A stretch of DNA of 2,485 nucleotides from Escherichia coli (GCF_003334355.1 NZ_QOWP01000075.1); one strand, 5' to 3'; shown: positions 160 to 2,485, counted from the stretch's first letter. Numbers and translations are program-made. Notes: generated by a model from the letters alone, not told the origin.

Positions 160-187
160 AAACCGCCTGCGGGCGGTTTTGTCATTT
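160..187 (+). terminator. Intergenic GC-rich hairpin followed by a T-rich tract, between I and J; terminator-like or RNA-stability element, function unproven
   Basis: Seen directly: AAACCGCC (160..167), loop TGCG (168..171), GGCGGTTT (172..179) form a perfect 8-bp inverted repeat with 5 G:C pairs, followed by TTTTGTCATTT. It lies 13 nt after the I stop codon and about 15 nt before the J ribosome-binding site. Stem-loop plus U-tract is the architecture of an intrinsic terminator, but the T-run is interrupted and the late operon is normally read through under Q antitermination. Confidence 0.35.
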
Positions 188-189
188 AT

Positions 190-193
190 GGAG
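190..193 (+). promoter_or_regulatory. Shine-Dalgarno-like GGAG for J
   Basis: GGAG at 190..193 lies 8 nt upstream of the J ATG at 202. A second purine-rich stretch, GAGGA (197..201), abuts the ATG but is too close to be an optimal SD. An in-frame TGA at 196..198 rules out any longer N-terminal extension of J. Confidence 0.55.
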
Positions 194-201
194 CGTGAGG
201 A

Positions 202-2485
202 ATGGGTAAAGGAAGCAGTAAGGGGCATACCCCGCGCGAAGCGAAGGACAACCTGAAGTCCACGCAGTTGCTGAGTGTGATCGATGCCATCAGCGAAGGG
301 CCGGTTGAAGGTCCGGTGGATGGATTAAAAAGCGTGCTGCTGAACAGTACGCCGGTGCTGGACACTGAGGGGAATACCAACATCTCCGGTGTCACGGTGG
401 TGTTCCGTGCCGGTGAGCAGGAGCAGACACCGCCGGAGGGGTTTGAATCCTCCGGCTCCGAGACGGTGCTGGGTACGGAAGTGAAATATGACACGCCGAT
501 CACCCGCACCATTACGTCTGCAAACATCGACCGTCTGCGCTTTACCTTCGGCGTGCAGGCACTGGTGGAAACCACCTCAAAGGGGGACCGGAATCCGTCG
601 GAAGTCCGCCTGCTGGTTCAGATCCAGCGTAATGGTGGCTGGGTGACGGAAAAAGACATCACCATTAAGGGCAAAACCACCTCGCAGTATCTGGCCTCGG
701 TGGTGGTGGGTAACCTGCCGCCGCGCCCGTTCAATATACGGATGCGCAGGATGACGCCGGACAGCACCACAGACCAGCTGCAGAACAAAACGCTCTGGTC
801 GTCATACACCGAAATCATCGATGTGAAACAGTGCTACCCGAACACGGCACTGGTCGGCGTGCAGGTGGATTCGGAGCAGTTCGGCAGCCAGCAGGTGAGC
901 CGTAATTATCATCTGCGCGGGCGCATTCTGCAGGTGCCGTCGAACTATAACCCGCAGACGCGGCAATACAGCGGTATCTGGGACGGAACGTTTAAGCCAG
1001 CATACAGCAACAACATGGCCTGGTGTCTGTGGGATATGCTGACCCATCCGCGCTACGGCATGGGGAAACGTCTTGGTGCGGCGGATGTGGACAAATGGGC
1101 GCTGTATGTCATCGGCCAGCATTGCGATCAGTCGGTGCCGGACGGTTTTGGCGGCACGGAGCCGCGCATCACCTGTAATGCGTACCTGACCACACAGCGT
1201 AAGGCGTGGGATGTGCTCAGTGATTTCTGCTCTGCGATGCGCTGTATGCCGGTATGGAACGGGCAGACGCTGACGTTCGTGCAGGACCGACCGTCGGATA
1301 AGGTGTGGACCTATAACCGCAGTAATGTGATGATGCCGGATGATGGTGCGCCGTTCCGCTACAGCTTCAGCGCCCTGAAGGACCGCCATAATGCCGTTGA
1401 GGTGAACTGGATTGACCCGAATAACGGCTGGGAGACGGCGACAGAGCTTGTGGAGGACACGCAGGCCATTGCCCGTTACGGTCGTAACGTCACGAAGATG
1501 GATGCTTTTGGCTGTACCAGCCGGGGGCAGGCACACCGCGCCGGGCTGTGGCTGATTAAAACAGAACTGCTGGAAACGCAGACCGTGGACTTCAGCGTGG
1601 GTGCGGAAGGGCTTCGCCATGTACCGGGCGATGTCATTGAAATCTGCGATGATGACTATGCCGGTATCCGCACCGGCGGGCGCGTGCTGGCGGTAAACAG
1701 CCAGACCCGGACGCTGACGCTCGACCGTGAAATCACGCTGCCATCTTCCGGCACCACGCTGATAAGCCTGGTTGACGGGCAGGGGAGTCCGGTCAGCGTG
1801 GAGGTTCAGTCCGTCACCGACGGCGTGAAGGTGAAAGTGAGCCGTGTTCCTGACGGCGTTGCTGAATACAGCGTATGGGGGCTGAAGCTGCCGACGTTGC
1901 GCCAGCGCCTGTTCCGCTGCGTGAGTATCCGTGAGAACGACGACGGCACGTATGCCATCACCGCCGTGCAGCATGTACCGGAAAAAGAGGCCATCGTGGA
2001 TAACGGGGCGCACTTTGACGGCGACCAGAGCGGCACGGTAAATGGTGTCACGCCGCCAGCGGTGCAGCACCTGACCGCAGAAGTCACCGCAGACAGCGGG
2101 GAGTATCAGGTGCTGGCCCGCTGGGACACGCCGAAGGTGGTGAAGGGCGTGAGCTTCCTGCTTCGCCTGACCGTGGCAGCGGATGACGGCCGTGAGCGGC
2201 TGGTCAGCACGGCCCGGACGACGGAAACCACTTACCGCTTCACACAACTGGCTCTGGGGAACTACAGGCTGACAGTCCGGGCAGTAAATGCGTGGGGGCA
2301 GCAGGGCGATCCGGCGTCGGTATCGTTCCGGATTGCCGCACCGGCAGCGCCGTCGCGGATTGAGCTGACGCCGGGCTATTTTCAGATAACCGCCACGCCG
2401 CATCTTGCGGTTTATGACCCGACGGTACAGTTTGAGTTCTGGTTCTCGGAAAAACGGATTGCGGATATCAGGCAGGTTGAAACCA
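202..2485 (+). CDS. J: Phage tail tip / host-specificity protein J (central tail fibre), N-terminal ~761 codons; 3' end lies outside the window
   Basis: ATG at 202 is preceded by an in-frame stop at 196..198 and a GGAG at 190..193. Frame 1 is then open for 2284 nt to the window edge, with a third-position G/C bias typical of coding sequence. The translation begins [34 protein letters not shown]..., which I recognise as lambda gpJ. Gene order I then J with a 60-nt spacer matches the lambda tail operon. Absent from the ORF track only because there is no stop codon in the window. Confidence 0.95.
2050..2340 (+). other. Fibronectin type III-like beta-sandwich module within J (about aa 617..713)
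   Basis: Translated segment [28 protein letters not shown]...[34 protein letters not shown] shows FN3 hallmarks: a Pro-rich start, a conserved Trp in the predicted B strand, and the tyrosine-corner-like pattern NYxLxVxAxNxxGxxxxPS. A second module with the same opening pattern ([17 protein letters not shown]...FEFWFS) starts near 2341 and runs off the window. Confidence 0.55.

Follow-up and report, generated by a model that had tools for sequence, protein, structure and literature searches.

Minus-strand open reading frames opposite gene J at a lambda-type I/J junction of Escherichia coli are very probably non-coding shadows

Open reading frames (ORFs) that lie antisense to genes with G+C-rich third codon positions are a classic artefact of gene finders, and are known as shadow ORFs. 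Translated antisense overlapping genes have, on the other side, been reported in Escherichia coli O157:H7 and in Pseudomonas aeruginosa (10.1101/2020.11.18.388249, PMC9927249, PMC8850804), and these cases rest on ribosome profiling (Ribo-seq), on promoters or Shine-Dalgarno sequences and, in some of them, on purifying selection. The first of these sources, the one preprint searched on this point, makes no mention of tail or host-specificity genes. Here we consider a stretch of 2,485 nucleotides (nt) of E. coli DNA (GCF_003334355.1, NZ_QOWP01000075.1; the whole of this stretch is hereafter the window), in which an ORF listing returned four minus-strand ORFs, the longest of 533 amino acids (aa), opposite a tail-tip gene J of the lambda type. 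It is our reading, held with high confidence, that all four are non-coding shadows of J and none is a gene, and that the window is a lambda-type I/J junction; we infer that no product is made from the minus-strand ORFs. The 533-aa ORF is like the classic shadow ORFs in its embedding, in its codon-aligned frame, in the limitation of its stops to the complements of TTA, CTA and TCA, in a codon usage that mirrors the host gene, in the lack of conservation of the ORF, and in a ratio of nonsynonymous to synonymous substitution (dN/dS) above 1. It differs from them in that 533-625 aa is unusually long for a gene of 58-60% G+C. With the overlapping genes reported from O157:H7 and Pseudomonas it has in common that a long ORF lies wholly within, and antisense to, an annotated gene of an enterobacterial (prophage) genome, but it fails on conservation, on selection and on a Shine-Dalgarno sequence or promoter.

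ORFs were listed at a threshold of at least 60 aa, and those running off a window end were omitted. Four were returned, all on the minus strand and together spanning 186-2403, with zero on the plus strand; these, read here as shadows, and the gene that they lie opposite are as follows.

202-2485, plus strand: 5' part of the tail-tip/host-specificity gene J, 761 stop-free codons from ATG 202, running off the right window edge
802-2403, minus strand: 533-aa shadow ORF in the codon-aligned antisense frame of J, ATG at 2403, stop at the sense TCA of 802-804
186-575, minus strand: 129-aa shadow ORF in the frame that sets the antisense wobble position on the wobble position of J, its last 16 nt within the I-J spacer
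618-818, minus strand: 66-aa shadow ORF, in the same antisense frame as 186-575
1806-2087, minus strand: 93-aa shadow ORF, in the same antisense frame as 186-575, nested in the 533-aa ORF in another frame

The original prediction, made from the DNA alone, had described every listed ORF as a minus-strand antisense shadow of J, and its coordinates and description are right, with the one correction that 186-575 ends 16 nt outside the gene. It had further held that genes I and J, on the plus strand, were missed through truncation, and this is borne out: frame 1 reads both, each cut by a window edge, and both are missing from the list because each runs off an edge and the lister drops such ORFs. 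When the threshold is lowered to 30 aa, a plus-strand internal-ATG fragment of I is listed (13-141, 42 aa).

The geometry of the antisense frames is informative in this regard. Base 2403 falls on the third position of a codon of J, which places the 533-aa ORF in the codon-aligned antisense frame, and stops in that frame arise solely from sense TTA, CTA and TCA codons (referred to below as shadow-stop codons). There are three of these in the 761 codons of J, with CTA at zero.

325-327, plus strand: TTA in J, read as an antisense stop
577-579, plus strand: TCA in J, read as an antisense stop
802-804, plus strand: TCA in J, read as an antisense stop

Third positions of J are 73% G+C (GC3 of 0.73) and 9.9% A. 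The frame of the 533-aa ORF meets no stop before the right window edge, which gives it 560 codons in the window, and in the J gene of Escherichia phage phiSTEC1575-Stx2k (phiSTEC1575 below), to which the window is 99.6% identical at the nucleotide level, the open antisense run extends to 610 codons between two shadow-stop codons. The attribution of these ORFs to GC-rich coding sequence in the original prediction therefore stands as background, while the exact cause of the 533-aa ORF is the codon-aligned frame combined with the three TTA/CTA/TCA codons in 761. As to how such frames come about, the G+C-rich, A-poor third positions of J, and its writing of serine as TCG or AGC and not as TCA, leave few antisense stops and so yield the 610-codon gap in the full gene; the short ORFs lie in the second antisense frame, with lengths typical for that frame. 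In the latter, antisense position 1 pairs with J position 2, and from the genetic code a stop needs a Tyr codon after a pyrimidine-ending codon, or a His or Gln codon after a T-ending codon.

TCA is depleted in J of the lambda clade, where it accounts for 2 of the 52 serine codons in the window against 13% of serine codons in other late genes. At J codons 247, 311, 330, 365, 468, 565, 610 and 718 (window about 940-2355), where the J genes of Stx phages have TCA, the lambda clade has TCG, AGC or a non-serine codon. The antisense frame of lambda-clade J is as long as it is because of this lineage-specific codon choice, in which TCA is avoided.

On the plus strand, J matches the NCBIfam model NF049904 (lambda_TipJ, "phage attachment tail tip protein J") with 1698 bits across model positions 1-760 of 1163, the full-length cutoff of 1950 being unreachable for a fragment that ends at residue 761, and matches PHROG 31 ("central tail fiber J") at E = 0; the homology check proposed for frame 1 of this strand thus gave the strong J matches anticipated. 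Scoring of codon usage on both strands, the other check proposed, likewise separated the genes from the ORFs. Under frame-specific codon models trained on 18 late genes, with I and J excluded, J and I are best described by the coding model (+0.42 and +0.59 bits per codon, respectively, above the best alternative), and the four minus-strand ORFs fall in the antisense classes, the 533-aa ORF being best fitted by the codon-aligned antisense (-0) model and the three short ORFs by the antisense -1 model, the coding model doing worse on all four, by 0.29-0.43 bits per codon. A Shine-Dalgarno sequence, GGAG, sits 8 nt ahead of the ATG of J at 202. In consensus scans no Shine-Dalgarno sequence was found before the ATG of the 533-aa ORF at 2403, which is preceded by CATAAACCGCAAG, and no sigma-70-like promoter was found on either strand of the window (0 sites). 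The predicted product of this ORF would be rich in Arg and His, with an isoelectric point (pI) of 11.4 and an Arg content of 13.5%. Searches of all four minus-strand ORFs returned zero matches in PHROGs and none credible in NCBIfam; the 533-aa ORF, the only one run against Pfam, had no match there at E <= 0.001, and neither strand of the window had an Rfam match at E <= 1. The only matches of the minus-strand ORFs in these family searches are noise, namely a Maf-like match (E = 0.16), WcaD (E = 0.027) and a zinc-ribbon motif (i-E = 0.0013 over 27 residues). In the phage and RefSeq E. coli records inspected, the features annotated beneath the match are I and J alone, both on the plus strand, and the minus strand carries none.

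Codon alignments were made of the window J with that of phage lambda and with seven J genes at 73-80% nucleotide identity, and these bear directly on whether the 533-aa frame is maintained. Lambda and phage Ayreon each have one stop inside the ORF, that of lambda being the TCA at J codon 311, and all seven of the diverged genes are interrupted, with 3-6 antisense stops in each; five of the seven no longer have the ATG. The antisense frame has a dN/dS of 1.4-2.5 against 0.07-0.22 for J itself, in which substitutions are concentrated at codon position 3, and antisense amino-acid identity is 0.50-0.61 where identity of the J protein is 0.72-0.80. Furthermore, the synonymous divergence (pS) of J is 0.43-0.57 in the antisense-open run, and is no lower there than in the 200 codons upstream (0.44-0.55). 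The synonymous rate of J therefore shows no dip over the open run, and J is under no added constraint there.

The original prediction expected no credible hits for the minus-strand translations, and for the 533-aa ORF this proved literally wrong: its translation finds 55 database clusters (clustered at 90% identity) at E <= 1e-3, many of them at E = 0. Those that are named are all from E. coli or Shigella and carry the titles "Uncharacterised protein" or "hypothetical protein"; 152 sequences belong to the largest cluster. Pfam domains occur in four of the clusters, where they are of the J type, and in none of the others. An entry of 582 aa and 99% identity (P0001) lies antisense inside a gene of 1128 residues that has the full gpJ set of Pfam domains and adjoins gene I, and an entry of 53% identity (P0044) lies antisense inside a diverged J gene; as such, the warning given with the original prediction, that annotating this ORF would produce a spurious hypothetical protein, describes what has already happened, since both are shadow ORFs called antisense inside J and present in public databases. 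ORFs of this kind have been deposited as proteins by several pipelines because they are long enough. Relatives more than 84% identical to the translation are 303-625 aa long (the long database versions being 582-625 aa), and when mapped on J they end at codons 202, 265, 312 and 366, the stops lying at 201, 264, 311 and 365, and start at codons 567-903; no fewer than 4 distinct ends and 8 distinct starts occur among them. These shifting ends and starts are what would be expected if synonymous TCA and TTA codons drifted in J, and the more diverged matches are 45-54% identical, as expected for antisense readings of J genes that are about 74-80% identical at the nucleotide level. The two located entries are antisense in J and the ends across the set are a patchwork, and the matches are therefore not independent homologues; a genuine overlapping gene should have homologues independent of the nucleotide conservation of J, and none of that kind was found.

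One further group of matches comes from E. coli assemblies in which an internal J segment of 552 bp (184 codons) is inverted (495-1046 of locus L016, contig ABEIUT020000193.1; P0045-P0047). As the codon-aligned antisense frame is open, the inversion does not interrupt the reading frame, and the J with the inverted segment is recorded as a partial "phage tail protein" or "DUF1983" protein that bears J Pfam domains. An inverted duplication was considered as the reason that J-domain proteins match the antisense translation, and none was found in L016, the cause being the 552-bp internal inversion. This inversion may be real or may be an assembly artefact.

Several observations weigh against the reading of these ORFs as shadows, and they are best judged together with the explanations that they would favor. 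For the longest, the rival explanation is an overlapping gene of recent origin, restricted to the lambda clade, that would measure 533 aa within the window and 582-625 aa in full context and would be translated from a leftward transcript, the avoidance of TCA, TTA and CTA in J being maintained to keep its frame open. It gains some footing from length. When the J protein was recoded with random synonymous codons following the usage of 19 other late genes, the median longest ORF was 197 aa and the observed 533 aa fell in the top 0.4-0.6% (P = 0.004-0.006), the three shadow-stop codons seen in J comparing with 8.2 expected under that usage. In the full J, moreover, the eight shadow-stop codons cluster at the gene ends, and a gap of at least 610 among 8 random points in 1165 codons has a probability of about 0.02; the antisense open run of lambda J is even longer, at 705 codons. 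Long antisense ORFs that are translated have been reported, as noted above, in E. coli and Pseudomonas. Against this, recoding with J's own codon usage gives a median longest ORF of 285 aa and makes the length unremarkable (P = 0.11), so that the 533-aa ORF is in the upper tail of length unless J's own low use of TCA is taken as given. The shadow-stop density of J is 6.9 per 1000, and lies within that of other late genes, 0-31 per 1000; these show similar open frames on a smaller scale, and in phiSTEC1575 the antisense open runs of E, A and L reach 280, 250 and 232 codons, and genes L, M, D and W have zero shadow-stop codons. An overlapping gene must also be reconciled with relatives that stop at four different J codons and vary equally in their starts, with the interruption of the window's ORF in lambda itself, with a dN/dS above 1 and an unaltered synonymous rate of J over the overlap, with a codon usage that fits the antisense model, with scans and searches that found no Shine-Dalgarno sequence, promoter-like site or domain, and with an Arg/His-rich product of such high pI. 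We consider it very unlikely that the long ORF is a gene of this kind.

The three short ORFs invite a different explanation, whereby one or more of them (129, 66 and 93 aa) would encode a small, conserved protein in overlap with the 5' part of J. In favor of this, none of the three intervals has a stop in any of the 10 J homologues examined, which reach down to 74% nucleotide identity, and the homologues retain the starts of the 129-aa and 66-aa ORFs. In addition, J-synonymous differences that alter the antisense amino acid make up about 11% inside the short ORFs versus about 25% outside (Fisher p = 0.005-0.05, over overlapping comparisons). About one third of the altering events outside involve antisense stop codons, however, which cannot be counted in intervals defined as stop-free, and when this ascertainment effect is taken out by removing such events the shares are 0.11 inside and 0.20 outside (p = 0.02-1.0), a contrast in the same direction that is mostly not significant. 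Box composition was tried as a cause of the lower altering share inside, and was set aside when a simple expectation model predicted no difference between inside and outside. The contrast is thus a weak, partly explained residual, and is not evidence for a gene. Antisense identity is no different inside the short ORFs (0.70-0.74) than in the rest of J read in that frame (0.66-0.76), because wobble sits on wobble and the constraint upon J is inherited. Their lengths are ordinary for their frame: under either codon usage the median longest ORF in this frame is 97-103 aa, with P(>=93) = 0.53-0.65 for the 93 aa observed, and 52-65% of synonymous recodings of J leave 186-575 without a stop. The GTG start of the 93-aa ORF is CTC in six of seven diverged homologues, an antisense codon model fits best for all three ORFs, and there are no matches to the families searched. 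A conserved small protein here is, in our estimation, every bit as improbable as the long overlapping gene. We would assign no greater chance to a composite of the two, in which the J of the lambda clade carries a recent, strain-variable antisense coding ORF of as many as 625 aa, or else a conserved small one of 129 aa at its 5' end, translated at a low level, with the scarcity of TCA, TTA and CTA partly maintained for it. The reading of all four ORFs as non-coding shadows of J is the one we retain.

The setting of these ORFs is a familiar one. The window covers the junction of genes I and J in the tail operon of a lambda-type prophage or phage, and sequence similar to it is present in 4613 of 5426 complete E. 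coli genomes. It is 96.4% identical to phage lambda at the nucleotide level across its whole length, and the gene order is I-J-lom in phiSTEC1575, Ayreon and lambda (K-I-J-lom in phiSTEC1575). Two features lie to the left of J.

1-141, plus strand: 3' end of the lambda-type tail tip assembly gene I, 46 codons and TGA at 139-141, cut by the left window edge
142-201, plus strand: I-J spacer of 60 nt, with a hairpin stem at 160-167 / 172-179, its loop at 168-171, T-rich sequence thereafter, and the J Shine-Dalgarno sequence GGAG at 190-193

Frame 1 of the window, from base 1 to the TGA at 139-141, translates as SLDNMVAQGNVLPVLYGEMRVGSRVVSQEISTADEGDGGQVVVIGR*, which is the C-terminus of gene I; the fragment matches PHROG 4554 and PHROG 32 (tail protein / tail assembly protein) at E = 5e-25 and 3e-14, and the gene is annotated as tail assembly protein I in the lambda, Ayreon and phiSTEC1575 records. 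The spacer is identical in sequence in lambda and phiSTEC1575, and in Ayreon the stem is identical with one change in the loop. The G+C-rich hairpin, AAACCGCC-TGCG-GGCGGTTT, is followed by T-rich sequence and lies 19 nt past the stop of I and 22 nt ahead of the start of J, with a fold of -21 kcal/mol (z = -2.65). It looks like an intrinsic terminator within the late tail operon; a terminator is annotated at the I-J spacer in the Ayreon record, and a simple terminator scan of the window did not call the hairpin. In diverged relatives from phages of the Stx type (L005-L010, about 1160-1500) the I-J spacer is about 240-340 nt, as opposed to 60 nt here, and in some records it has a small annotated ORF, such as the 77-aa "tail fiber protein" overlapping the start of J in vB_EcoS-569R3.

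Compared with lambda gpJ, the J of the window shares the I-J spacer sequence and the nucleotide identity given above, and matches the tail-tip model from position 1 to 760; it differs in that the window has the N-terminal two-thirds of the gene only, and by a few amino-acid changes (codons 202-734 are 97.9% identical). To the right of the window, the C-terminal third of J in the closest full-length relative (J codons 812-1165; L003, about 41000-42065) is mosaic with respect to lambda, with nonsynonymous divergence (pN) of 0.30 and pS of 0.68, against a mid-gene pN of 0.014, and this fits an exchange of the receptor-binding region. A separate record, MW057783.1 ("Campylobacter phage CJLB-4", host Campylobacter jejuni, 48,361 bp), has exactly the identity and score of lambda against the window (96.4%, 4091 bits) along with lambda-style I/J annotation, and looks like lambda DNA, through contamination or mislabelling, and not a Campylobacter phage.

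The locus is the well-known lambda I/J junction, and its minus-strand ORFs are a textbook annotation artefact of an already known kind, so the scientific weight of the finding is small. Its practical value is as a curation note on a shadow ORF of J that has been deposited many times as a protein: a naive homology search would seem to validate the J shadow ORF, and matches to such entries are no evidence of a gene.

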